Assembly (NCBI GenBank): GCA_002269645.1
Contig: NIVC01002171.1
Coordinates: 1 to 64,000, forward strand
Source: Macrostomum lignano
Taxonomy: Eukaryota
DNA length: 64,000 bases
Direction of reading: 5' to 3'
Both the position numbers and the translations under genes were made by a program. The notes beneath the pieces are model-generated. The model saw only the letters and a program-made list of their open reading frames with translations. It made no database searches and was not told the DNA's origin. This document shows, in pieces, positions 1 through 44,438 of the stretch. Position 1 is the stretch's first letter. Each line of letters opens with the position of its first letter.

Positions 1-391
1 AGTGAAATTTTTATGTGAAAAAAATATTTAAAAAATGAACTATTATTCTATAACAGGAAACGACATTTATTGTGAAAAATATATATAAAAAAAATGAAGG
101 TAAACTATTCCTACATCGGAAATGGCCGATTAATGAACTTAATGAAAATTTAAGTTTGATAACAGTTGAACAAATGTCAATAATAATATTAGTAACAATT
201 ATAGTAATAATATTGTTTTTGTTTGTTATAAAAATTTACTACCATGTTGTCTCAAGTAATTGTTCGAACTTAGTTCGCTGATATTAGTTGGTTCTCATAA
301 AACGAACCCAATATTTCTTCACCGTCCTTATCAGCAATTATATAGGTTGTAGGATTGGTATTTAAAACTTTACTGATAGTAAATTTCTCAC

Positions 392-1171
392 TTATCTTCC
401 AATATCCTTTTCTTCCTTTTTCAAACTTATCTTTCCATTTATAGATATAAACAGAATCACCAACCTTAAAAGATTTCTTTTATTTTTTTCAAATTTTCCA
501 AAAGTAACTTTAACGTTTTCAGGATTGTTATAAGCTTGTTGAGGAGTCATCTTTATAGCTGAATGATATGAATTGTTATAATCTTTCACTACGTCTGGTA
601 ATATTTTTACCCACTTTTGGTTACCATTAAGACTAAACTGAAACCATAATTTCTTACCTAAAGTTCGATTAAATCTTTCTATTAATGCGTTTTTACTCTC
701 TCCATAAATAGAATAAATTTTATTAATATACTCCCCATTCGCGTCTTTTTTCCTTTCTTTTCCTTTTTCAAAATGATACAATTTATACATATGAGGATTG
801 TAAAATTCTTTTCCTTCATCAACACACAATCTTTCGCTTTTTTCTCCAAGACTTCTAAAAGCAGCAGCAACCTCCTCTCCCTTTTTGGATTTTAAAGGAA
901 CAGCCCACGCGTATCGAGTAAAACCATCTAATATGGTTAAGATATATTTATATCCTCTTTCGTTCGGCATCGACATTAAATCAGCATACCAAATTTCATT
1001 CTTTTTGAAGTTCATGATTTTTCTATAAAATTTAGGTTTTCGATATTCTTTATGAAGAATCTTTGCCTCATCAGAACTTAACCCACCACCACTTAATAAT
1101 AAACACTCGACACAATTATTTCCATGTTGATTATAATTAATTCCCAAACCAAATTTAACTTTAGACTGCAA
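392..1171 (-). pseudogene. Polinton retroviral-like (rve/DDE) integrase; C-terminus frameshifted, continuing to about 255
   Basis: WYADLMSM...YKYILTILDGFTRYAWAVPLKSK, DEGKEFYN, IERFNRTL and YNNSYHSAIKMTP motifs. The typical C-terminal tail (PTTY..D.DGEEILG.FYE) is in another frame near 290-470. Confidence 0.9.
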
Positions 1172-1909
1172 AATCTTTTAACCATCCACCTAGTTAATCT
1201 TTGCCCTACCGATAATCCCTGCAAGTTATCTAATCCTTGAATCATTTTTTGATCGCGCTTCATGTTTTAATCTTAATGCTTCCTCGGGCGGGTTCTTGTC
1301 AGCATCTCTATATGCTAAGTCGTGATAGTATGCTAACCAATCAATCCCATTTATTGGAATTGAATCAGATTTTGGAGTATTGTCAGGATTTAATCTCAAA
1401 TCTAAGCGAGTGCCGGGTAGTTTACCCTCAATCTTTCGAAAGAGGCTGGAGCACACCTTAAGCGGCGATAATTACCGCCCATCTCCGTCTGCTCTCTGAA
1501 CCTTCTCCTTATATTTAAAATACTTAGGAGCTTGGCTGCGCATTGCCACCATGTCTTCAAGCTTTTTACCTTTGGGAAGAGGAGTTACCTCTGTTCCTTC
1601 AAAAGATTTCTCAATTGAAGTGGTACTTGAAGCTGTATGACGGGTTTCACGCAATTTGGAGATGTCGCCACAAATAGTGACTAGCAAGGACATTGCCTTC
1701 CTCACTCAGGCCACGGGATAACCTGTGAAGTTCATTGATGGTAGGTGTAGCTCACCCGTATACCTCCCAGTAGTAAATATTGGTGGTAAGCTTGTTAATC
1801 CTTTTTGAACATCTAAAAATCCTCCTTCAAATACTAATTGATCGTTCCGAAGGAACGCGGACTTCGCCCGATCGAACCTTTGGTTCGCATGCGTCGCATG
1901 ATTGCTCAT
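1140..1909 (-). CDS. Parvovirus-type phospholipase A2 domain protein, split by a group I intron (exon 1 1909-1721, exon 2 from 1417); two frameshifts near 1255 and 1175
   Basis: Joining the exons gives GELHLPSMNFTG|PGTRLDLRL...IDWLAYYHDLAY, which restores the YxGxG-type Ca loop and the DxxAxxHDxxY catalytic motif. The downstream ...ILQSKVKFGLG is recovered across the frameshifts. Confidence 0.88.
1418..1720 (-). ncRNA. Group I self-splicing intron, IC1-like, 303 nt, no internal endonuclease ORF
   Basis: P1: exon CAGGU with IGS GCCUG (1711-1707), U.G pair at the splice site. P3: CAUCUCC (1664-1658)/GGAGAUG (1486-1480). P4: UGCGUG/UGCGCA. P5abc has an A-rich bulge and a GAAA loop. P6 has CCUAAG..UAAGG. 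P7: G-A(bulge)-GAGCA (1496-1490)/UGCUCC (1453-1448). P8, P9 and P9.0 (AG/CU) are also present. Confidence 0.9.
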
Positions 1910-2309
1910 TTTTTATAGCCTTAAAAATACATGATAGCACCAATTGTTTTGCAAATTCTTCAATTGTTGGTTGTTTAACAAATTTAGTTTTATTATCAAT
2001 AGCAGCTAAGTATCTTTTATTTGTCCAATGTTCAGACTTTTTCATATGATCTTCGTCTTTGTAATTAAATGAAGAAGCAGGAATAAAATGATCAATATGT
2101 AAAGCACCACCATAGTCTTTTGGAACATAATAATGTTTTGTGAAATTTAACCAATCAATAAAGAATTCAATTGAGCAACCAAGGTAATCAATAGTATGAT
2201 TATTTTTTCGAGCATTATTTGATTTTAATAGTTGATTTATTCTATTTCGTGAGGTGATAATAAGTTTGTAATTTTCATCAGTGACTTTTTCAATATTGGA
2301 TTTGGAAGC
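1827..2309 (-). pseudogene. HNH (beta-beta-alpha-Me) homing-type endonuclease, N-terminus disrupted
   Basis: The frame of ORF 1827-2045 stays open upstream to a stop at 2310-2312. It reads ...SRNRINQLLK...TIDYLGCSIEFFIDWL...LHIDHFIPASSF...HWTNKRYLAAIDNKTK, matching the HIDH..P..F...H..N..L...N.K pattern of viral and phage HNH nucleases. Confidence 0.75.
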
Positions 2310-2533
2310 TTATCAATGTTATGTGTAATCGTTTTAGGTATTTTACAATCTATTCCAACTCTTAATTTATCTCAATTATTTTTAGGTATTTCAATTGGCT
2401 CAATATCAGGTTTTGAATTGATCAGGAACTTATCAATACTTTTAGCAATTAAATTATATCTTAAAAAAGAAAGGAAAAATATAAATCTTTAAGAGATGTT
2501 GCAAAACAATATAAAAATCAATTATATTTATAT

Positions 2534-2791
2534 GTGCAAAAAATATTGGATGACGGAGAGATAACGATTCATGAATTATCAACCGCGGTTGAATTATATG
2601 AAAAATATTTAAAAGATAGAAATAGAATTTTAGATGTTGAAACTTTTACCGATATGGAATTAAAAGAGTTGAGACTCGATAAACCCAAAGCTCCACCTAT
2701 AGATACATTAGGTATTTACGAACCTGAAACTATTGCTACTGGGGCACAAAGCCCGCGGTCAGGAAGTGCGGTAGAACTTCAGGTTGTTTAG
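2534..2791 (+). CDS. Small Polinton hypothetical protein
   Basis: 85-aa ORF; the ILDDGEIT..E motif resembles small ORFs I recall from Polintons. Confidence 0.45.
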   Translation: MQKILDDGEITIHELSTAVELYEKYLKDRNRILDVETFTDMELKELRLDKPKAPPIDTLGIYEPETIATGAQSPRSGSAVELQVV

Positions 2792-3271
2792 TTTTTCTAA
2801 TGCATATGTTATATATTCTTCCCAAAGTGGTAACTCTCTTCTGATCCTAGGTTTAAATTTTTTATCAATACATAAAAATTCCAATGACTTTTTCAATAAC
2901 ATTTCGTTAGGTATGTTACCTATCCTTATAAACTTTGTATTCTCTCGAATAAGAAAATTGAAATAATATCCAACTAAAATTAAAATCCTTTCGGAGTCTT
3001 TCGAACTTAATCCCTTTCCTTTATTTAAATGGAAAAAGTTATTATATAAATAAACATTATTTCCGGGAATTAAAATTGGATCAGAAATGTCTCTTGTAAG
3101 ATTTCTTAAAATTGTGTTTTTAAAATAGTAATATGAGTTTTCAATCTTTTTTGTTTTTTCAAATTGATATATTTTAGAACATGAATAACACATATGATAT
3201 ATATCTCCGTTTGCTGTTTGCCCTCTGTGCATAGTCACGTTACATTTATTACAAACATAAATGTCTTTCAT
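2759..3271 (-). CDS. Polinton hypothetical protein with N-terminal CxxC...CxxC zinc ribbon
   Basis: 170-aa ORF with CNKC...CYSC; AT-rich codon usage like its neighbours. Confidence 0.55.
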   Translation of the reverse strand: MKDIYVCNKCNVTMHRGQTANGDIYHMCYSCSKIYQFEKTKKIENSYYYFKNTILRNLTRDISDPILIPGNNVYLYNNFFHLNKGKGLSSKDSERILILVGYYFNFLIRENTKFIRIGNIPNEMLLKKSLEFLCIDKKFKPRIRRELPLWEEYITYALEKLNNLKFYRTS

Positions 3272-3297
3272 TTTTTTGTTATTTTTTTAGATTAAAA

Positions 3298-3627
3298 ATG
3301 GAGAGCTGGTTCAAAACCGATTCTAATGTGATTAATTATCTCACACCCAATATGTTGGAGAATAAAGAATATAATATTGTATGTTTGAGACAGGTTAAAT
3401 TTATTGGGCTTCAATCAATATTTTTACAATTAGATGGGCAAAAAATTTTATGTCTAAGCGGAGATGATGTTAAAAATTTTCCTGTTTTAGTTATTAATAA
3501 ACCTAAAGCGTTTGTTATGAAATACTGCAACGAGGGTGGATTGCAATTTAAACTAAAACAAACAAATAATAAAAAGAGTGATAGGACTGTAAAATTGGCG
3601 GCTGTTTGGGAGGATGACCCCGAATAA
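3298..3627 (+). CDS. Polinton hypothetical protein
   Basis: 109-aa ORF, tightly packed, with an A-rich AAAAATG start context. Confidence 0.55.
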   Translation: MESWFKTDSNVINYLTPNMLENKEYNIVCLRQVKFIGLQSIFLQLDGQKILCLSGDDVKNFPVLVINKPKAFVMKYCNEGGLQFKLKQTNNKKSDRTVKLAAVWEDDPE

Positions 3628-3648
3628 GTTTAAATTTTTTATAAGAAA

Positions 3649-4038
3649 ATGGATACGATAAAAATCCTTATCACTAAAGAGCGTGAACTTAATGATATTA
3701 ATAAAAAAATAAATATAATTATATCTCAGAAATATCATGAGTATGGGGACGATATGTTTCCCATCCGATATGAGATAGATAAAAGAAAACGTTTTTTAAG
3801 ACAAGATATTGTTTATGCTGAAATAGTAATTGAAATTGAAATAGATAGATTGGTTAGAAAAATAAAAAAACTTAGGAAAAAAATAAAGGATTGTTTAAGT
3901 TACCCTGCCGACTGTGAGGATAATTGGTGCTCAATAATATCGAACGAAGTTCGCGACCCTGTGGGTCGATATGAAATTGAAGTTAATGATTTGCTCAAAC
4001 AATTACATGCTTTAGTTTTTTACAGACCCGATAAGTAA
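3649..4038 (+). CDS. Polinton hypothetical coiled-coil protein containing one 28-bp hairpin insert
   Basis: 129-aa ORF with an AAAATG start. Confidence 0.55.
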   Translation: MDTIKILITKERELNDINKKINIIISQKYHEYGDDMFPIRYEIDKRKRFLRQDIVYAEIVIEIEIDRLVRKIKKLRKKIKDCLSYPADCEDNWCSIISNEVRDPVGRYEIEVNDLLKQLHALVFYRPDK

Positions 4039-7000
4039 TTTTTCTGTTAATCTCTTCCAGTTATTCAAGACTTTTTCCTTATTTAATTTTTTAAGTTCTT
4101 TTGGAAATGTTGAATAATAATTATCTATATCTTTTTCATATTCTAGAAATGTATTATATTCACAATCACATTCGGATTCACAATCACAATCGTAATAATA
4201 ATTATTTATTGCCGCCTTGTATTCATTATATTTGCTTATTATATCTTCTTTTTGTTTTTTATCTTTTATCATATTTTTTATCTCTTCTTTTAAACCATAT
4301 GGATATGTTTTAATTTTATCATCTAAATACCTTTTATCATCAAATGGACTTAATGTTTTTTTATCTGTCTCGATGACAAACATCTGATGCTTATCTGAAT
4401 TTAATCGATATTGTGGAGCATGATAATTTTCAATTGTATTAAGGTAATCTAAAAGTACGTTTTTATAATCATCAAATGTTATCTTTTTTACTGCTGCTCT
4501 TGATACCCCTTTTATTTTTTTTACCTCTCCCTCCTGTCCTAAAACCTTAAATGCATAGCATTTTGATCTTATTGCTATAAACTCGGTTATGATTTTGCTA
4601 TTTAATTCATCTTTCATTTTAAGTACAACTTTTTTATTTTGATCTGATTTTAAAGGATGGTTATCCGGATAGTCTGATGTGTCCAATGTATCCTTAATTT
4701 TTTCCATATCTTTATAGACATCGAACCTTTGGTTCATGGACTCCGTCCGATCATCTGTTTCAACCTTAAATACCAAACTGTCGGTGTCTGCATATATTGG
4801 ATAGTTATCTGGCCATGTTTTATTTATAACATCATAATAATATTCATACATTACCAGCTTTGCATAATCTAAAACAACCATTCCAATAAATATTGGTTTA
4901 AGAAATTTTGTTGTTTTATTTCTCATATGAATACCCATAAAGTTATCATCAAATTTTATAAAGTCTTTAAAGTTAGGTTTTGAGAAATATTTCTTTGCTT
5001 TATCAATATCCTTTTCTAAATGGAATTGGGTTCTATCTCTAATATTTTCAACCGTTTTTCCATAAAAAGCATTATTCATTAATTTCCAATAATCTTTCTC
5101 AAAATTTGTTTTTGACATCTGTCTCTGATTTGAATTAAAGTCAATATATTTAGCTAACCAATCTTCCTCAATAAACGATATTGTTCGATGTACTTTAGAC
5201 ACTTTTAATCCCTGCTTTTCATAAAATTGTAGAAGCTTATAATGCACTACATAGTTTTTCTTATCATGTAAATTTAATATTAATTTTTTTGTTGCTAGAT
5301 GTTTTGTATTATCTACTTTAAGATAATCTTTTTGTGTTTGTGATAAATCATCTTCATTAACTGAACAATGCTCTGGAGCTAAAGGATATTTATATGTTTT
5401 TGCTTTTGCTTCTCGAGTATATTGCAAATCCACCTCTACAATACAGCCCCTTCCTTCGGGAATATTTTTGTAATAATCGGGGTCATCTTCCCATTGGAAA
5501 TCAGCTATTGGTAATTTTTGTTTCATACAACCACCGTATAAATTGTTTGCATCTAGATATAATACATATGATGATTTTTCTTTTTTATTATAATTTGGAA
5601 GATACTTATTATTTACTTTAGTATATCTATCTCCTAGTACACCCGAGAATCCACCGCGAATTCCTCTCTCAATCATTAACAACATATCATGATCAGTTAG
5701 TAAATCAATCTTAACATCTGTATGTTTCAAACCACAAGCCCATGTTAATCCCGGTGCACTGAAACAATATGCGGGATCAATTTTAAAATTCTCATATGTA
5801 TGATTCCTAAAGTTTTCAAATGCATCAGCTAATAGGAGAACATCTGCTTTAAGATATAGATTATGATAATCTTTAAATGTTTTACAATTAAAGTATTTCC
5901 ATACTTTTTGAGCGTGTTCATAATCCGATTCACTTATGTTTGTTTGTGATAATGTTGAATAAAACTTTTCAATTGGGGGTAATTCGGTATGAAAAAATAC
6001 GTCTTCAGATGTTACATATTCATATGGATAGATGCCCTTACGAGTTAATAGCATTAGTTCTTCCTCGGATAGTTTTTCTTTTTTGAAACGATTCAATAGT
6101 ATTGGAAAGTTTTTCTTTACTATTTCTAAATCCCATGGTTTTGGAACTAATGATGAAACAACATTTGCTAAAGATGTTGATAAGAATCTCAAGGAATCTA
6201 GAAAAACTAGATGGGAGTATTTCTTACCATATGTTATTGATATGTAATTTTCTGATGTTTTAGGTAATATATTTATTTCATATTCATCCTTTCCTAAATG
6301 AAGCAATTCTCGAACTAAGAAATGAAAATCATATCCGGAACCATTATGAAAAAATACTGGTATTTCCTTACATCCTTTTCCTTCTTTTGCATTACATGAT
6401 CTACATGCTGCCCCTCGATAATTTCCTGTTAGATGACAATGTTCTCGTATCTTATTTTTCTTACTTAAATATCTTTTGCACATAAAACAATTTGTTGCAT
6501 TTTTATAATTGTCTCTATCCTTATTTGTCATATTAATATTTTTTGATAATTTATCATATTGATTTTGAATATATTCAAATACATTTACTAATGATTCTGC
6601 CATGTGCTTAGCTGCATCATTACCGTGGTAAGTAATCATCCTTGATTTAAATATATGATCAGCTACGGAGTGTACATATAAACAATAACTATTAGGAAAC
6701 TGTTGTGCTAATTTTTTTGTGCATTCACCGTCCCGTAGGGTCGCATGCTTTGCATGACCGTCATCAGATACTGTTTGTGGTTCTTTTAAGGGAACATTTG
6801 TTGCTTCAAAATCAGCATATATTACTATTGGTTTTTTAACTGCCATATAATGTTGTTGGAACTTTAGGGTTGCATCTTCAGATGCTGGCATTATAGCATT
6901 AGTAAATTTGTGATCTAAACAAAATCGTTGGTGGTTTTTAAGAGCTGTTTCATCCTTTTTAAATGTAAAACAATTTCTACATAGTGGATATCTATTTCTA

Positions 7001-7767
7001 TTTTCTCTTAAAAAAGAACTAATATCTTTTATGTATATATAATGTGTTTCATTTTCGCGCTGCATGTACAAAAGATCGATTTGATCTGGTGCTGTTATAT
7101 CAGTTGCTGGCTTAACAAGATAACACCTTTTCTTATACCATTCTGGATCGACCTGCTGAATTTCTTCTAGATCTTCTGGTTCTTCAATTGTAAAAACATT
7201 AATATTTAAACCATTCATTTTTTCAATCTTATATATATCATCTATTGCTACTGGGTATGAGATGTTTTTCATTATTATTTCATCCTCATATTGTCTATAA
7301 TTATATATTTTATTAATGTGTGATTCTACTTGATTGTGATATTTATGAATTAATAAACACCATAATAAACATTTATTATCTTTATTGTCTGGATTTATAA
7401 TCATAGGTGATTTAAATTTGAGCTTCATATGTGATCGTCCTTTAAGAATTTCTATAGGTGCAATCTTTACTATTGCTGAATTACATGAAACAAATATAAA
7501 CCCAGATCCGTTTTCTGTCATCTTATCTATCCATTCATCAAACTCAGCTTCTATTTGATCGAATTGATTGTTGTAATTTCCCATTGATAATAATGTTTTA
7601 TATGATTCTTGTGAAAAGTTATTTATTACTTCAATTTCTGAATTTGCATTAAGAATATTTGGTTTTTTAAATTCTGTTTCAACTTCTATTTTATACTTAA
7701 TTGGCTGTCGTTTGTTATTTGGCCTTATAGTATAATTGTTTAATATGGTCTTTAATTTATCTTTCAT
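4012..7767 (-). CDS. polB: Protein-primed family B DNA polymerase (pPolB), intact
   Basis: 1251 aa. Motifs: YADFEA, HCHLTGNYRGAAC, FHNGSGYDFHF, KGIYPYEY, YLKADVLLLADAFE, YLDANNLYG, KLMNNAFYGK, YADTDS, KIKGV. Confidence 0.97.
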   Translation of the reverse strand: MKDKLKTILNNYTIRPNNKRQPIKYKIEVETEFKKPNILNANSEIEVINNFSQESYKTLLSMGNYNNQFDQIEAEFDEWIDKMTENGSGFIFVSCNSAIVKIAPIEILKGRSHMKLKFKSPMIINPDNKDNKCLLWCLLIHKYHNQVESHINKIYNYRQYEDEIIMKNISYPVAIDDIYKIEKMNGLNINVFTIEEPEDLEEIQQVDPEWYKKRCYLVKPATDITAPDQIDLLYMQRENETHYIYIKDISSFLRENRNRYPLCRNCFTFKKDETALKNHQRFCLDHKFTNAIMPASEDATLKFQQHYMAVKKPIVIYADFEATNVPLKEPQTVSDDGHAKHATLRDGECTKKLAQQFPNSYCLYVHSVADHIFKSRMITYHGNDAAKHMAESLVNVFEYIQNQYDKLSKNINMTNKDRDNYKNATNCFMCKRYLSKKNKIREHCHLTGNYRGAACRSCNAKEGKGCKEIPVFFHNGSGYDFHFLVRELLHLGKDEYEINILPKTSENYISITYGKKYSHLVFLDSLRFLSTSLANVVSSLVPKPWDLEIVKKNFPILLNRFKKEKLSEEELMLLTRKGIYPYEYVTSEDVFFHTELPPIEKFYSTLSQTNISESDYEHAQKVWKYFNCKTFKDYHNLYLKADVLLLADAFENFRNHTYENFKIDPAYCFSAPGLTWACGLKHTDVKIDLLTDHDMLLMIERGIRGGFSGVLGDRYTKVNNKYLPNYNKKEKSSYVLYLDANNLYGGCMKQKLPIADFQWEDDPDYYKNIPEGRGCIVEVDLQYTREAKAKTYKYPLAPEHCSVNEDDLSQTQKDYLKVDNTKHLATKKLILNLHDKKNYVVHYKLLQFYEKQGLKVSKVHRTISFIEEDWLAKYIDFNSNQRQMSKTNFEKDYWKLMNNAFYGKTVENIRDRTQFHLEKDIDKAKKYFSKPNFKDFIKFDDNFMGIHMRNKTTKFLKPIFIGMVVLDYAKLVMYEYYYDVINKTWPDNYPIYADTDSLVFKVETDDRTESMNQRFDVYKDMEKIKDTLDTSDYPDNHPLKSDQNKKVVLKMKDELNSKIITEFIAIRSKCYAFKVLGQEGEVKKIKGVSRAAVKKITFDDYKNVLLDYLNTIENYHAPQYRLNSDKHQMFVIETDKKTLSPFDDKRYLDDKIKTYPYGLKEEIKNMIKDKKQKEDIISKYNEYKAAINNYYYDCDCESECDCEYNTFLEYEKDIDNYYSTFPKELKKLNKEKVLNNWKRLTEKLLIGSVKN

Positions 7768-7817
7768 TTGTTTAAAATATTCTTTATAATTTGTATTTAT
7801 ATCTATATCTATATATA

Positions 7818-8009
7818 TTACTTCAGCTCCATTTTGTCCTTGTGGTTGGGGTTATTAATATCATTTAATTGTCTTTCTAAACGTATCTCATTTTCTGCCC
7901 TAATTCTTGCTTCTATTTCAGCCCTATCGGCAATTCGTTGTGCATCGATTTGAGCTATTAATTGTGCTCTAAGTTCAGGGTTGTCGATTTGAGCTAAAAT
8001 TGCTTCCAT
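7818..8009 (-). CDS. Small coiled-coil hypothetical protein
   Basis: 63-aa ORF with an A-rich start context. Confidence 0.4.
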   Translation of the reverse strand: MEAILAQIDNPELRAQLIAQIDAQRIADRAEIEARIRAENEIRLERQLNDINNPNHKDKMELK

Positions 8010-8093
8010 TTTATAGAATAAAATTTATATAATGTTTGAATTATTGATTTTTTAATTTTGTGTTTTTGGTGTCCAGACCCTCCCCCCAGGAGC

Positions 8094-9080
8094 CTATTCG
8101 AGATCTGCTTTTGGTAATAGCAATCCATTGCCCATAACGTTTGAATTTAAGAAAATTCCTGAACCTGCTTTTGGTCTCATTTCGAGATATAATCCGCTTC
8201 CGTCGTGTTTTTCAATGATATTAAAATCTTTTCCTAATTTATTAAAAATTTTCTGAACAGCTGGTCTAAAATTGGATCCAATATTGTCAAAAAATCCTTT
8301 AGCTTTCTCACCCGTTTTTTCTAAAGTTTGACCAAATTCATGTAGTTTATCTGCTACAACTCCACTTCCTTGGGTTGTTCCTTTTAGTACCAAACCATTC
8401 CCGTGATTTGTTCCTTGCAAGAGTAAACCTTTTCCGGCTGCTAACCTAGCTTCTGCATTTCTTTTTTGCTCTGCTGTTGCTGAACTACTATTAATGGTAT
8501 CAATAAGTTTCTGTTTGAATTGTGCGTCCTGCGTTATTTGCTGTCTTTGAAATTCTGCATCTCGTTTGGCTTTTTCGTCCGCAGCTTTTTTGTCATTTAC
8601 TGCTTTTGCAATTCCAGCTGCTCCGCCAGCAACTCCTCCAGCTGCTCCAATTCCTGCAAAAATTATTGGGAGCAAAGCTGCAAGGGGTAAGATTCCCCCC
8701 TGTTTCGCTCTTAACTCTCCTAGCTGTTTTACATTATCATGAATTCTTTTTCCGGCTAAACCGACTGCTCCAGCTGCACCAAGTCCTAAAAGAAGCGGTA
8801 GAATGGGTAGTAATCCGCCGTCCTTTTTAGTGTGAGTCTCCATTAAAAATTTCACATCGGAGTCTGTCAACCTATAATTTCTGCCGCGATTCTTAAAGGA
8901 TATTGGCCTTCCTTCTTGTGCATATTTTGCTGCGAGTTTAAATGTATCGATGTCGTAGTCAAACTTTTTACCTAATCGATCCAATCTTTTTAACATTGTG
9001 TGGCTATGTTTATTATCATCTAGATCTAAAGTATCTACAATTTCTCCTATAAAATATAAGCGGTCGTTATCTGTGTCCAT
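8094..9080 (-). CDS. Polinton Gly/Ala-rich putative core or membrane-active structural protein
   Basis: 328 aa with repeated GG-hydrophobic segments (DGGLLPILPLLLGLG, QGGILPLAALLP..GIGAAGG), resembling adenain-processed core proteins of Polintons. Confidence 0.55.
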   Translation of the reverse strand: MDTDNDRLYFIGEIVDTLDLDDNKHSHTMLKRLDRLGKKFDYDIDTFKLAAKYAQEGRPISFKNRGRNYRLTDSDVKFLMETHTKKDGGLLPILPLLLGLGAAGAVGLAGKRIHDNVKQLGELRAKQGGILPLAALLPIIFAGIGAAGGVAGGAAGIAKAVNDKKAADEKAKRDAEFQRQQITQDAQFKQKLIDTINSSSATAEQKRNAEARLAAGKGLLLQGTNHGNGLVLKGTTQGSGVVADKLHEFGQTLEKTGEKAKGFFDNIGSNFRPAVQKIFNKLGKDFNIIEKHDGSGLYLEMRPKAGSGIFLNSNVMGNGLLLPKADLE

Positions 9081-9164
9081 TTTTATATTGTTAAAATTTC
9101 TTTAATCCTTTTCCACCTTTAATAGTATTTAACATTTTATTAAAATCCTGAATATCTTTATTAC

Positions 9165-9488
9165 TTATTGGTGCGCTTTTCGTGGGGTTTCTGTTGGTTG
9201 TGCGGCTTGTGCCAGCTTTAAATCTTTTATTGCATTTATTTGTGAGAGGGTGTCGTTAAAATCTCTCAATTTCTTTAGTTCTTCTGCCGCTCTAGCTGCT
9301 TCAATTCCTCCTTTTACAGCATTTGTTATAGAGCCTGCTGCAGAGCCAGCTTGCCCTATAAGCCCCATATTGTCTTTAACAAAATTTGCTGCTGTTCCAA
9401 CCACATCAAAAAGCCCCTCACCTCGGTATTCAACTGGGTCTCCTACCTGCATTTCATTCAGATTTTGCAAATGAGTAACGTGTGTCAT
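9165..9488 (-). CDS. Polinton small Gly/Ala-rich protein
   Basis: 107 aa with GEGLFDVVG...AGSAAG amphipathic segment. Confidence 0.5.
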   Translation of the reverse strand: MTHVTHLQNLNEMQVGDPVEYRGEGLFDVVGTAANFVKDNMGLIGQAGSAAGSITNAVKGGIEAARAAEELKKLRDFNDTLSQINAIKDLKLAQAAQPTETPRKAHQ

Positions 9489-9526
9489 TTTTTGTTCTAT
9501 TTTTAGTAACAGAAAAAGATTGTCTG

Positions 9527-9624
9527 CATTCCATTTAGACCAGATTTTAGACCAAACAAAACTAGACTATCGTTTTGGTTTTCGTTTTCAAAAATTTGGT
9601 CTAAAATCTGGTCTAAATGGAATG
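9527..9624. repeat. Perfect 30-bp inverted repeat with 38-nt spacer
   Basis: cattccatttagaccagattttagaccaaa (9527-9556) and its exact reverse complement (9595-9624). Confidence 0.95.
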
Positions 9625-9710
9625 TTGGGTGGGTAGGTGAGCTGACTATAAATAGCTTCTATTCTTTCCGACCCTTCGCGCCTGCGGCGCGGGCAAGGGG
9701 GTTATAGAGT

Positions 9711-9976
9711 AGTAGTATATAAAAAGACGCTTCTAGATCAGACCTTATTTTAATGGCCGTTTGTAAGGTCTTAAGAGGGGGACGCGAGGGGGTGTTGGGG
9801 AGTGTTTGGAAGTGTTGGGAAGTGATTTTTATTGTTAGGGGTGATTATGGGTGATTAGATGTATTAATGGTGTTTAGATGTGTTTTTTTATTTACCCCCC
9901 GTGTCCCCCCTCTAGACCCTTAAAACGGTCATTAAAAAAGTGCTCTGGGTCTAGAAGCGTCTTTTTATATACTACT
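9711..9976. repeat. Polinton terminus with an internal inverted copy of itself
   Basis: agtagtatataaaaagacgcttctaga (9711-9737) is the exact reverse complement of 9950-9976; imperfect similarity extends to about 85 bp. Confidence 0.9.
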
Positions 9977-12929
9977 CAGCTGCACTTTTGCAACTCGCAC
10001 CCGTCTCTCCGCTGCAGCCAGCAGATGATGGTCGCGAATCGAGCTGTCTCGCCTTGCATGCAGATGCGCCGCTTTGAGCTCAAGAACCTGGTCGCCATGG
10101 TCGGGTCTAATCGTCTGACCGCCGATCGTTCCTCATTCATGCTAACGACTGTGCTCCGACCAGTCACCCTTTGTCCATGCCACCAGCTGTCAACCTCCGT
10201 CAGCTGCTGCGCTGAAGTTCCTCGAGACAACGCGTCGACTGGATTGAATTCGGTCGTGACACACCTCCACTGGTCCGGATCTGTGACAAACTTGGTCTCT
10301 CCAATGCGGTTCGCACCAAACGGCTGGTCAAATTTAAAGGTGCACTCTTTCCGATCGCTTCTTAATTCTACACCAAGCGTCTTGATGGATGGCATCGGTG
10401 TCCCTTCCAATGTTACTTCGGCTACTCGATCTTCTGGTGGCACTCTGCCCAACAGTTCTCGCGAATTGGACATCCATTTCCTGGGGTGCATCCCTGCACG
10501 CTCCCAGCGAGTCTTCAACTCTTGAAACAGCTGGATCGCCTCAGCCTCTGACCCGACCGAATCTAAACAATCGTCCATATAGGTGGAGTTGAGAACAGCG
10601 TCTGCAGCTAATGGCAGCTCTTCTTTCAGGCGTTCCGCATGCTCACGAACTACGAACTGTGCAAGAAACGGCGAGCTCGAGTTGCCGAAAACGATGCGGT
10701 TGGTCTCAAATATTTCAACAGGCTTGCTGGAGTCCATCTCACGGCGTAGAAAGCTATGCGTCGGCCTGTCCTCTGGCGCCATTTCGATCTGGAGGTACAT
10801 CTCGGACACATCACAAGCCCCAGCCACCGCATCTCTCCGGAAGCGAAGCAGAACGTCAAACAATTCTCGCTGAAGCTTCGGCCCTGGGAAGACCAGAGTT
10901 TAACGACTTTTCGTTTCCGCCCGCCGAGGCATCGAAGACGATCCGAACCTTTGTCGTCAGCTTGTCGAATCGAATAATCGGGAAATGCGGTAGAAAACAC
11001 CTTCTGGCCGAGAACTCTTCTACTGCAACGCGCCGGATGTAGCCTAGCTGCTCATATCGCTCTATACATGCTTGGTATTGCTTTGCCACCTCCAGATCCT
11101 TCTTCAACCGGGTCTCCGTGTTGCAAAGCCGTTTGATCGCCATCTCATAGTTATTCGAGCGAACTTTCGCCTCTGGCTTCCACGGAATTCCCACCTGGTA
11201 TCGGCCGTTTGTTAGCTTTAATGAAGACTTGGCTTGCTCGACTGCAGCTTGCTCATCCGCTGTCCAATTTTGATCTTGAGCTGGCCGGATTTCTTCGACC
11301 TCCCAGAACTTGCGCAGCACTGGTGACAGCATCTCCTCGCTGGTGACACAGAAAAAGGTGCTGGCCAAGTTTGTCTGATGCTGAATCTGTTCTACTGGAC
11401 CCACACCTGTCCATCCAAGGGGAGTCAAACGTGCTTGTGGCTCCCCAGGGCCACCGCGAACTTCTCGGTAGGACACGTGTAACTCCGCATGATCTACTCC
11501 TATCAGCAGGTCTATGAGATGCGGCGCGTGGAGCTGAGGAAATGGAATGCGCTCCAGATGTTTCCAATCTGCTGCCGTCGTCTGCCAATCCGTAGCCTTC
11601 AACTTCCCGGTGACGCTGTCTGTCGTGAATGCCGTGATCGGACGACTCAGACTTCCATCTACACTTTCGAGCGTCATCGTAACCGGAGCTGTCAACAATG
11701 TCTCTGTCTGTCCGTCCAAAACGTTCACTTTCACTTGCTCCACATTGCCCTCCAGTCCCAGAGCTTCAGCAATCTCCGCATTCACATACGTCCTTGTACT
11801 CGCGTCGTCCAACAGTGCGTTCACCTTCACTACACGGCCGCCTGCCTTGAGAACTACTGGAACTGTTCGCAGCGACGTTGCACTTCCACTTCCTGCCATC
11901 ATAGTTACGGCGGCTCCTTTGCGACCCGACTCAGCGCTCTTTTTGCCTCCTTCGGCCGGAGAATTCTTCCTCGACTCAGTTTTTGCAGCCTCGTCTGAGT
12001 GCAGCAAGCGGTGGTGAAACTTGTTGCATTCACCTATTCCACATCGGCGTCCATGACGGCATATCCGAGCAGCATGACCGCGAGCTAAGCAGCAAAAGCA
12101 TGATTTCGAATCTTGCGCAGCCTTCCACCGATTTTCAATTGACAGCTGTCTAAATGTTGGACACTTCCACAGCTCATGTTGATCTTGACACAGCATACAA
12201 GATTTTGACGGAGATCCTTGTTGATGATCTGCAAGAAACGTTTTGGACCGCGTCTCCTTCTTAACCTTCTCTTCACTCGTCACACCGTGCACAATCTCCA
12301 TGGCTTCTGTCTGGAAAGCGGCCTCCATCAGCACCCACTCACGTAACATCTTTACGTTCTCCTGCCTATGTCCTTCGAATAGCCAACGCCGGTAACGCGC
12401 CACCATCTGCTCAGGGAGCTTCTTCTGCAACTTTGCGTACAACAACCCGTCAGTCAATTCTGAGACCTTAACAGACTCTTCGAGATTTACAACTGCGACA
12501 TCTAACAGATTAGAGAATTGCTTGAGCTCTTTTGCATTGGTGGAGCGGATGGGTGGAAAGTTATCGAGCTCTTCAAGATACATAGCGATACGTCGGCGGC
12601 TGCCCCCGAATTCGCGTTCCAATCTGTCTTTGGCAGCCTCGTAAGCAGCGGCAGAGTGACCCAGATGTTCGACTAATTTCAAAGCCGGCCCTTGAAGATA
12701 TTGACGGAGTTGAAGCAATTTGAACTCCGGCGTGGCAGGAGCTCTATCAATACAAGCAGTAAAGGCGGCTTTCCAAGATTCGTACTGCTGCTTTTCGCCG
12801 CCGAACTTTGGGATCTCTACACGCCGAAGCATCTTCCAAAGATCCTTTGCTAACTCGGCTTCACCGCTGCTAGTCTGAGAATGGCCCGCCTCACTTACAG
12901 AGTCATCAATACTACTGGCACTCACAACC

Positions 12930-39235: not shown

Positions 39236-40063
39236 ATGCCTCTCTGCCGGATCCTCTGCGCTGCTCCGATCCTGAGCTGCCTGATCTGCGCCGCTCTCTG
39301 CCGGGAGTTCCAGATCTCGGACCTCGGCTGCTTCGTTGACGGCACGAATGGCGTGAGAGACGTCGGTGGCATGAAGAACATCGGCCTCACACGGATCGGC
39401 AGCTCCGAGGTATCTCAGATATACGATTCTATCAACTGCGGTCAGATGACTCGCGAGGTGTGCAGCAGCGCCTGCGCTCTGGGCGGCTTCCAGTTCGCGG
39501 CTCTGCAGGCCGCGTACTGGTGCCACTGCGGCAACTCCTACGGGTCGCAGGGCGCTGCTCCTTACTGGGAGTGCAGCGATACCTGCAGTGGAAACTGGGG
39601 CCAGAACTGCGGAGGTATGTGGCGAAACCGGGTGCTCCGGCTGAGCTACACCAACGGTGAGTTGCTGCTGCTGGTGGCCACTTGTTTAATTTTTGGTCTT
39701 CGTATGTTGCTGCATTGGATTTTGGCGACAGACAAACAAACTTTTAAGCAGACAATCAGATGCCTTTCAGTGTGGCTCAACTCAACTCAACTTCAAATTA
39801 TTTCATTGCAAATCGAAGGTAATGACTTCTTTGTTCGCGGCAACCGGAATTTCGTCGAACTCAACAACCCTGATGCGCCGAACTTTACGACTGTGAGCGC
39901 TCCGAGTCGGATCCAGTGCGTGTCTCTGTGCTCCAGTAAAAGTTCCGGTTGCCAGGCGGTGATCTTCAGCCAGCAGCAGCGCCTGTGCCACCTGCTGGAG
40001 TATGCTGCGGTCCCGGCCGCCTTCAGCAGCGAAAGCAGCGGCGACTTCTTTGTCCGTGGCTGA
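39236..40063 (+). CDS. Secreted WSC + PAN/apple domain protein, copy 1 (intron 39657-39818)
   Basis: Hydrophobic leader; WSC pattern CSSAC..GFQFAALQ..YWCHCGN...C...CSGN..QNCGG..RN; PAN pattern C...C...CQAV.F...RLCHL; GT-AG intron in phase. Confidence 0.8.
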   Translation: MPLCRILCAAPILSCLICAALCREFQISDLGCFVDGTNGVRDVGGMKNIGLTRIGSSEVSQIYDSINCGQMTREVCSSACALGGFQFAALQAAYWCHCGNSYGSQGAAPYWECSDTCSGNWGQNCGGMWRNRVLRLSYTNGELLLLVATCLIFGLRMLLHWILATDKQTFKQTIRCLSVWLNSTQLQIISLQIEGNDFFVRGNRNFVELNNPDAPNFTTVSAPSRIQCVSLCSSKSSGCQAVIFSQQQRLCHLLEYAAVPAAFSSESSGDFFVRG

Positions 40064-43610: not shown

Positions 43611-44438
43611 ATGCCTCTCTGCCGGATCCTCTGCGCTGCTCCGATCCTGAGCTGCCTGATCTGCGCCGCTCTCTGCCGGGAGTTCCAGATCTCGGACCTC
43701 GGCTGCTTCGTTGACGGCACGAATGGCGTGAGAGACGTCGGTGGCATGAAGAACATCGGCCTCACACGGATCGGCAGCTCCGAGGTATCTCAGATATACG
43801 ATTCTATCAACTGCGGTCAGATGACTCGCGAGGTGTGCAGCAGCGCCTGCGCTCTGGGCGGCTTCCAGTTCGCGGCTCTGCAGGCCGCGTACTGGTGCCA
43901 CTGCGGCAACTCCTACGGGTCGCAGGGCGCTGCTCCTTACTGGGAGTGCAGCGATACCTGCAGTGGAAACTGGGGCCAGAACTGCGGAGGTATGTGGCGA
44001 AACCGGGTGCTCCGGCTGAGCTACACCAACGGTGAGTTGCTGCTGCTGGTGGCCACTTGTTTAATTTTTGGTCTTCGTATGTTGCTGCATTGGATTTTGG
44101 CGACAGACAAACAAACTTTTAAGCAGACAATCAGATGCCTTTCAGTGTGGCTCAACTCAACTCAACTTCAAATTATTTCATTGCAAATCGAAGGTAATGA
44201 CTTCTTTGTTCGCGGCAACCGGAATTTCGTCGAACTCAACAACCCTGATGCGCCGAACTTTACGACTGTGAGCGCTCCGAGTCGGATCCAGTGCGTGTCT
44301 CTGTGCTCCAGTAAAAGTTCCGGTTGCCAGGCGGTGATCTTCAGCCAGCAGCAGCGCCTGTGCCACCTGCTGGAGTATGCTGCGGTCCCGGCCGCCTTCA
44401 GCAGCGAAAGCAGCGGCGACTTCTTTGTCCGTGGCTGA
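43611..44438 (+). CDS. Secreted WSC + PAN/apple domain protein, copy 2 (intron 44032-44193)
   Basis: Same ORF translation as copy 1. Confidence 0.8.
   Translation: MPLCRILCAAPILSCLICAALCREFQISDLGCFVDGTNGVRDVGGMKNIGLTRIGSSEVSQIYDSINCGQMTREVCSSACALGGFQFAALQAAYWCHCGNSYGSQGAAPYWECSDTCSGNWGQNCGGMWRNRVLRLSYTNGELLLLVATCLIFGLRMLLHWILATDKQTFKQTIRCLSVWLNSTQLQIISLQIEGNDFFVRGNRNFVELNNPDAPNFTTVSAPSRIQCVSLCSSKSSGCQAVIFSQQQRLCHLLEYAAVPAAFSSESSGDFFVRG

Follow-up and report, generated by a model that had tools for sequence, protein, structure and literature searches.

The DNA analyzed here, which we call the window, is a 64,000-nt stretch of the Macrostomum lignano genome (764 Mb; contig NIVC01002171.1). Its first ~10 kb are an AT-rich portion of a Polinton element, and the remainder is host DNA rich in retroelements. 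As read from sequence, the locus of interest consists of a nuclease slot and a group I intron that interrupts the PLA2-integrase gene in one family of integrated Polintons, here called family A (Table 1).

Table 1. Features of the Polinton element portion of the window
Feature	Positions	Strand	Remarks
Whole element portion	1..9980	.	GGNCC 0 vs 9.9 expected
Exon 2: remaining PLA2 domain into rve integrase	392..1417	-	
ORF-less group I intron, 303 nt	1418..1720	-	between Gly (GGT) and Pro (CCC) codons
Exon 1 of PLA2-integrase ORF	1721..1909	-	ATG 1909; ends ...TTC ACA GGT
Two tandem 30-nt double-hairpin in-frame inserts, exon 1	1841..1900	-	
Double-hairpin copies	1900-1871 and 1870-1841 (-); 3941-3970 (+)		pattern scan
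Surviving 3' part of free-standing HNH (beta-beta-alpha-metal) nuclease gene	1827..2283	-	
HNH active-site codons	D73/H74 2093-2088; N97 2021-2019; N106 1994-1992	-	
Deletion junction	2283..2309	-	junction at 2283; frame's first ~9 codons derive from deletion's far side
pPolB-like ORF with Endonuclease_7-type insert	4012..7767	-	Pfam matches insert only
Terminal repeat of the element	9670..9982	.	96-97% match to repeat just past integrase end of sister copies

By its predicted gene content, the element belongs to the Polintons/adintoviruses: Pfam matches an rve integrase in the window element, A32 ATPases are found in sister elements of family A and of family B (a second Polinton family in the same genome), and family B carries a DJR capsid and PF08398. 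The window copy lacks the ATPase/structural block, and we infer that it is a non-autonomous deletion derivative. We take the ORF at 4012-7767 to be pPolB on the strength of polymerase motifs read by eye; Pfam matches no polymerase domain in it, and an Endonuclease_7 domain (PF02945) is inserted at residues 411-473. This insert recalls the HNH insert of nematode and oomycete pPolB2, as far as the available text of that report describes it (PMC10748475). A perfect 30-bp inverted repeat lies at 9527-9624, just inside the terminal repeat, and its hairpin accounts for weak microRNA-family matches there. In the host DNA, two ORFs of 275 aa each, arranged in tandem (39236-40063 and 43611-44438), encode WSC and PAN domains.

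A sequence-only reading of this DNA had proposed a free-standing HNH endonuclease with a disrupted N-terminus, whose 3' end overlaps the PLA2 start, as the partner of the intron. The structural part of that description holds. The minus-strand frame from 2309 to 1827 is open for 160 aa without an ATG ahead of the active site, contains the motif HIDH..P..F..HWTN..L...N.K and overlaps the PLA2 ATG by 83 nt. Near-identical complete sisters (97-99% identity) have an ATG and an N-terminal CxxC..CxxC segment, and the window copy departs from them at 2283. At this point a ~7.2-kb internal deletion (distance measured in C1116) joined two distant parts of the element, removing the HNH N-terminus, its upstream gene and the ATPase/protease/structural-gene block. 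Contigs C2974 and C5098 have the identical junction, and contigs of other sequencing runs branch at the same position. Because no start codon precedes the active site, the window HNH gene is, on its sequence, a pseudogene; being dead, it cannot be the active nuclease of the pair. A position of the HNH frame within a larger intron was rejected, as exon 1, which is homologous to intron-less alleles, separates the two. The tandem inserts of exon 1 also extend the HNH tail. They belong to a family of 30-nt inserts (a 13-nt hairpin, a 15-nt hairpin and AT, with varying stems) that sit in frame in genes and also in the intron (P5 region of L072, L110 and others). The pattern had no matches in shuffled controls, and the insert looks like a tiny mobile element.

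Conservation and viral models bear out the assignment of the protein to the HNH nucleases. In a 102-row alignment (101 relatives), H74, N97, N106 and K109 are invariant and D73 is conserved in at least 90% of rows, preserving the DH...N...N motif. Among the viral models of BFVD, the HNH model (pLDDT 88) has 25 matches at E ≤ 0.001, several of them named HNH, with an 'Intron encoded endonuclease [Bodo saltans virus]' at rank 2 (E = 2e-7). Fold matches in the PDB are weak: Foldseek gave none at E ≤ 0.001 (best E = 0.046, top rows mostly Cas9 HNH), and in the VIA fold comparison HNH folds reached Z 3.7-4.3, with unrelated chains scoring higher. A sequence search of solved structures returned one match at E ≤ 0.001, to Hpy99I and confined to the zinc-binding stretch. 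The protein matched no HNH model in Pfam or NCBIfam, and only the complete sisters matched PHROG 1035. The window ORF found nothing among the 28 candidates of a word-seeded protein search, the complete sister found three matches, and the HNH alignment found no relatives among 600 stretches of viral sequence. A profile built from nine natural copies matched 15,182 clusters at E ≤ 0.001. From sequence and modeled fold, the protein is a predicted nuclease of the HNH type. Its family is common in giant viruses and phages, and in giant viruses introns encode it. The gene is under purifying selection (dN/dS 0.47), as estimated from 42 alleles drawn from the 63 complete frames among 103; the filter for these alleles required the catalytic residues, so their invariance in this set carries no weight.

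The interrupted gene had been described as a PLA2 gene. It does encode a PLA2 domain, but not that alone: it is a PLA2-integrase fusion, as is the intron-less homologue L227 (PF08398 plus rve). The two domains share one ORF in the window (1909-392), in L227 (9084-9998) and in L220 (684-1658). Expression of the integrase would therefore need splicing of the intron, unless an internal start is used. Exon-2 matches across the genome have frames of ~400 aa after the intron; the window frame is broken near 1256 and again near the integrase end. The intron matches Rfam RF00028 with 64.2 bits (gathering score 50), the U at its 5' splice site pairs with G in P1 (U.G), and the ORFs in 1720-1418 include no nuclease, in agreement with the earlier claim that the intron encodes none. 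Its last base (1418) is A rather than the canonical G. The same holds for 85 of 115 type-1 introns, the other 30 ending in G. The 5' strand of P7 does not differ between A and G alleles, and purifying selection acts on exon 2 whichever base ends the intron (pN 0.031 and pS 0.375 in A alleles). A natural intron without a terminal G has reportedly been described. No intron-skipping joint was listed in the contigs of four sequencing runs, whose status as RNA is a guess; none of the datasets listed as carrying the sequence is recorded as RNA, so that this result speaks neither for nor against splicing. A second intron type with a different core follows the same Gly codon at 24 of 142 loci (L018-L020, L098-L101 and others), and had no Rfam match at E ≤ 0.001.

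To place the window copy among its relatives, we turn to the genome-wide census. Searches yielded 118 HNH matches (123 of 123 candidates scored) and at least 150 exon-2 matches (150 of 444 candidates scored). Classification covered 142 family-A loci, leaving out seven stretches without exon 2, one duplicate and one family-B locus; these copies are not independent events, and assembly duplicates may be among them. The slot holds the HNH gene at 103 of the 142 loci, an Eco47II-like PD-(D/E)xK nuclease (hereafter PD) at 37, and no nuclease that we could see at two, both rearranged. HNH occurs with the type-1 intron at 83 loci, with the type-2 intron at 17 and without an intron at 3; the corresponding numbers for PD are 30, 7 and 0. 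The intron is present at 139 of 142 loci. The predicted co-occurrence of HNH gene and intron did not emerge, the intron being found at 100/103 HNH and 37/37 PD loci (Fisher p = 0.57), although the test has low power with the intron near-fixed; the absence of intron-less PD copies is likewise not significant alone (p = 0.57). A genome-wide pattern for the intron-less family-A junction had three matches, all of them the HNH intron-less loci, and the two of these carriers with complete frames form their own sequence clusters.

The HNH gene behaves as a unit of its own. Across 78 distinct haplotypes it forms a linkage block, with rho 0.53-0.83 inside the gene against 0.15-0.31 to PLA2 and the intron. 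It is an optional cassette beside the host gene of the intron, with PD in its place at 37 of the 140 nuclease-bearing loci. The flanks of the slot are conserved (the final ~56 upstream columns of the alignment have a diversity of 0.024-0.029), and diversity peaks around the insertion site (p 0.005-0.03). Junction haplotypes are common to the HNH clusters and also to PD, and no self-protection linkage of HNH clusters to junction haplotypes was seen. With the intron in place, haplotype-specific immunity would not be needed.

Several comparisons identify the second occupant of the slot. The family-B PD exceeds the Pfam cut-off for Eco47II (30.1 bits; cut-off 25.9), the free-standing family-A PD falls below it (20.6), the ESM Atlas places PD with Eco47II/EcoO109I clusters, and the fold matches EcoO109I with a TM score of 0.68. 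On sequence and model, PD is a putative PD-(D/E)xK nuclease of the Eco47II/EcoO109I group. Its dN/dS of 0.23 indicates purifying selection. Searches with the PD alignment found no relatives in viral sequences and genomes, and none in plasmids. No methylase was found among 22 sister-element ORFs or the ORFs of the window element, several of which are unannotated.

In family B, a homologous intron interrupts the PLA2 gene at the same codon and carries PD within it. All 28 of 28 family-B intron loci scored, the best by Rfam among 29,353 first-look candidates, have PD, which lies between P1 and P4 in 23 of 23 measurable introns, where the P1-P4 distance is 544-590 nt vs 55 in the window; sister introns have their nuclease ORF between P1/P2 and P3. 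No free-standing nuclease occurs at the equivalent place in family B, and neither nuclease was found within ~1.5 kb of the 23 intron-less PLA2 loci outside family A. In a midpoint-rooted tree, the free-standing PD genes are one clade among intron-encoded forms. Exon 1 of family B ends in Phe-Ala-Gly where the intron is present (L068-L095) and in Phe-Thr-Gly where it is absent (L041-L067), a co-conversion-like split. A third PLA2 type (L046, L049, L052; L237-L238) is intron-less, lies in GC-rich DNA with many GGNCC sites and matches neither Polinton family.

At the level of sequence, nucleases of both types are seen within the homologous intron where it interrupts PLA2 at this codon. Beyond this genome, the tails of outside PD homologues match the intron core in five of nine cases by tblastn and in a sixth by eye. 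For HNH, the third-best profile match (P0006) runs into a homologous intron core, with 58% identity between its last 48 residues and the translation of the window intron (E = 8e-15), and it falls in the sister subclade to the family-A HNH; metagenome and viral locus searches returned no relatives of it. A metagenome pattern scan returned two contigs. In one, L232, a homologous intron (101 bits) interrupts the PLA2 gene at the same codon and contains an HNH gene of the window family with one in-frame stop; this HNH is distant from family A (38% over 87 aa) and not its sister in the tree. On the other, L231:1-1195, the gene for a giant-virus-like RNA polymerase large subunit is interrupted twice by introns that lack ORFs and are homologous to the one in the Polinton. 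These two closely spaced introns presumably lie at the NADFDGD motif. A locus search for relatives of the L232 PLA2 exon found none, and the intron pattern was not found in viral contigs. As for the idea of an intron-plus-nuclease module spreading among Polintons, the part that stands is that HNH relatives are intron-encoded, one of them at the same codon; the part that does not is the correlation of HNH with the intron, and the haplotypes of the two show weak linkage (rho 0.2-0.3).

One link between PD and the insertion site is a short word. EcoO109I and AvaII have GGNCC-type sites. Homologues of Eco47II have been assigned the site GGNCC in the accessible part of one report (PMC10305163). Any Gly-Pro codon pair spells GGNCC, and therefore the insertion site must be GGNCC. 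This word is absent from the window element (0 observed, 9.9 expected), from C1116 (0/14.2) and C2120 (0/15.5), from the PD-bearing family-A element C4175 (0/21) and from the intron-bearing family-B element (0/13.2). Two intron-less family-B elements have one site each (11.5 and 15.8 expected), in both cases the insertion junction itself, and two HNH-only intron-less elements have two each (18.8 and 20.5 expected), namely the junction and one extra. Host DNA contains 155 (169.6 expected). Among all words tested, none is as depleted as GGNCC in either family (p 7e-10), and no second purged word stands out that might be assigned to HNH (next best p 4e-6; host best 2e-5). The avoidance reaches into the proteins: Gly-Pro dipeptides number 0 in 4172 aa and 0 in 2809 aa, compared with 5 and 9 Pro-Gly, and only 1/200 and 0/200 synonymous shuffles reached zero. 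In 248 kb around the 142 loci, GGNCC occurs only at the three intron-less junctions and 12 times in four loci, where position and rearrangements lead us to read the sites as foreign inserts.

These results favor PD over HNH as the partner of the intron, because GGNCC, the site predicted for PD, coincides with the insertion site and has been purged elsewhere in the elements. Elements would survive by losing every GGNCC, down to avoidance of the Gly-Pro dipeptide. The sole retained Gly-Pro, in the conserved PLA2 G-P-G motif, would be split by the intron. An intron-less relative would carry one or two cuttable GGNCC sites, one exactly at the insertion point; PD would cut it there, and repair would copy the intron in. 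A 5-bp restriction enzyme would in this way behave as a homing endonuclease, with a free-standing PD gene amounting to collaborative homing and a PD gene inside the intron to classical homing. We consider it probable that PD cuts GGNCC, that carriers are immune through purge and intron, and that cleavage of intron-less relatives at the insertion site drives homing. The best explanation as a whole would add that HNH, a rival cassette that moves on its own, has taken the place of PD in most copies, and toward this fuller account, with homing driven by PD via the last GGNCC, we lean modestly. On a wording of the system as a methylase-free restriction system in Polintons, with an intron plug at the last Gly-Pro and an HNH competing for both slot and site, we are evenly divided.

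Most probably HNH is a homing nuclease with a long recognition site. That it is directed at or near the same junction and has displaced PD in most copies is a view that we hold with somewhat more doubt than belief. The intron-encoded relatives L232 and P0006, the diversity peak around the insertion site and the dispensability of haplotype-specific immunity in the presence of the intron speak for such a target, and the three intron-less carriers, the weak linkage and the scarcity of targets speak against it; with the intron at 139 of 142 loci, few targets remain that could sustain an HNH cutting at the junction. The family is large, moreover (15,182 clusters), and its members need not have a common target. 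The main alternative, though unlikely, is that HNH is not aimed at the intron site at all, cutting instead the PD allele or the slot flanks and replacing PD by intronless homing, so that PD alone maintains the intron and HNH is a free rider. This would fit the exact exchange within conserved slot flanks, the HNH linkage block, the excess of HNH over PD (103 vs 37), the three intron-less HNH carriers, and the junction haplotypes shared by HNH clusters and PD. It fits less well with the HNH relatives that the homologous intron encodes, in one case at the same codon, and with the diversity peak at the intron junction, and nothing in the PD gene directly marks it as a target.

The purge itself could have another source. 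Elements without PD are also free of GGNCC, so an outside nuclease, from a co-infecting giant virus or other competitor, could drive it; the intron would then hide the last site, and the resident nucleases would be passengers or general interference weapons. Eco47II-like clusters are indeed common in Nucleocytoviricota, and homologous introns interrupt the giant-virus-like RNA polymerase gene of L231. We nonetheless judge this improbable, given that the element itself encodes the matching enzyme family under selection (dN/dS 0.23), that the family-B PD lies inside the intron at that very site, and that PD was never found with an intron-less junction (0/37 in family A and 0/23 at intron-less non-A loci, within ~1.5 kb). 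More improbable still, in our estimation, is that the nucleases are accessory viral enzymes for packaging, recombination or breakdown of host DNA, their adjacency to the intron being a relic of an ORF that moved out of it. Such a role would fit with both genes being under purifying selection though the intron is near-fixed, and it accords with the free-standing PD being one clade among intron-encoded forms and with the discussion of HNH proteins as packaging factors of Polinton-like viruses (PLVs) in the available text of one paper (PMC12220804). However, the slot is occupied by either of two unrelated folds, the corresponding place in family B contains no free-standing nuclease, and the GGNCC purge would be left unexplained.

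The model of PD-driven homing can be set beside known systems, here as presented in the accessible portions of the papers cited. In cyanophage S-PM2, the free-standing endonuclease F-CphI and an ORF-less psbA intron exemplify collaborative homing (PMC6083498, PMC3984707, PMC2988022). The Polinton host is instead an integrated eukaryotic DNA virus whose slot holds one or the other of two unrelated nucleases. A single genome contains both the free-standing and the intron-embedded state, and the better-supported partner is a restriction-type enzyme with a short predicted site that is purged genome-wide; cleavage by F-CphI has been demonstrated, whereas cleavage by the Polinton nucleases is a prediction. 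Phage T4 has free-standing mob/seg endonucleases, with trans homing by mobE and SegH/Hef in place of mobC/mobE (PMC2988022, partly from a reference title). Like these, the Polinton nucleases are optional cassettes between conserved genes, overlap neighboring ORFs and have been exchanged for an unrelated nuclease at the same locus; in the phage, however, targets have been mapped, and the target of the Polinton HNH is a prediction.

Bodo saltans virus (BsV) has group I introns with HNH/GIY-YIG endonucleases together with ORF-less offspring introns, and both trans-homing and interference between related viruses have been proposed for it, as the available text reports (PMC5871332). Our HNH model matches a BsV intron-encoded endonuclease, and L231 has the homologous intron in a giant-virus-like polymerase gene. 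The BsV nucleases lie inside RNA polymerase gene introns, and that text describes no short-site enzyme or purge (PMC5871332). PD shares fold and family with Eco47II, EcoO109I and AvaII (PF09553; PMC3424549, PMC10305163), whose GGNCC-type site is the purged word. It differs from them in having no methyltransferase among the ORFs scanned, with protection apparently provided by site loss and intron, and in sitting in and beside a group I intron. Protist PLVs have ORF-less group I introns of 309-376 nt in their genes; the parts of that report available place these introns in protist PLVs only and in an unannotated short gene, and name no nuclease partner (PMC12220804). Two PLV papers, in the sections available, mention collaborative homing, but solely to draw an analogy with helicase or replicase genes. 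Within the titles and abstract beginnings covered, we found no description of an intron-nuclease pair in animal Polintons, nor of an intron occupying the one site left after a purge of restriction sites. Set beside this literature, the Polinton system would, as we read it, amount to collaborative homing by an uncommon short-site mechanism.

If this model is correct, it would have several implications. It would outline a route by which a restriction enzyme becomes a homing endonuclease through purging of its site, with no long recognition site, and would give a group I intron a concrete selective benefit in the form of immunity. Both proposed stages of mobile-intron formation would stand side by side among ~140 natural alleles, and a majority intron ending in A under apparent selection is a further oddity of the system. 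Finally, intron homing and collaborative homing, known from phages and protist viruses, would be extended to Polintons integrated in the nuclear genome of an animal-like host. Because homing needs two elements in one cell, it would imply that the elements replicate together and recombine, a point relevant to the question whether Polintons of this kind act as viruses.
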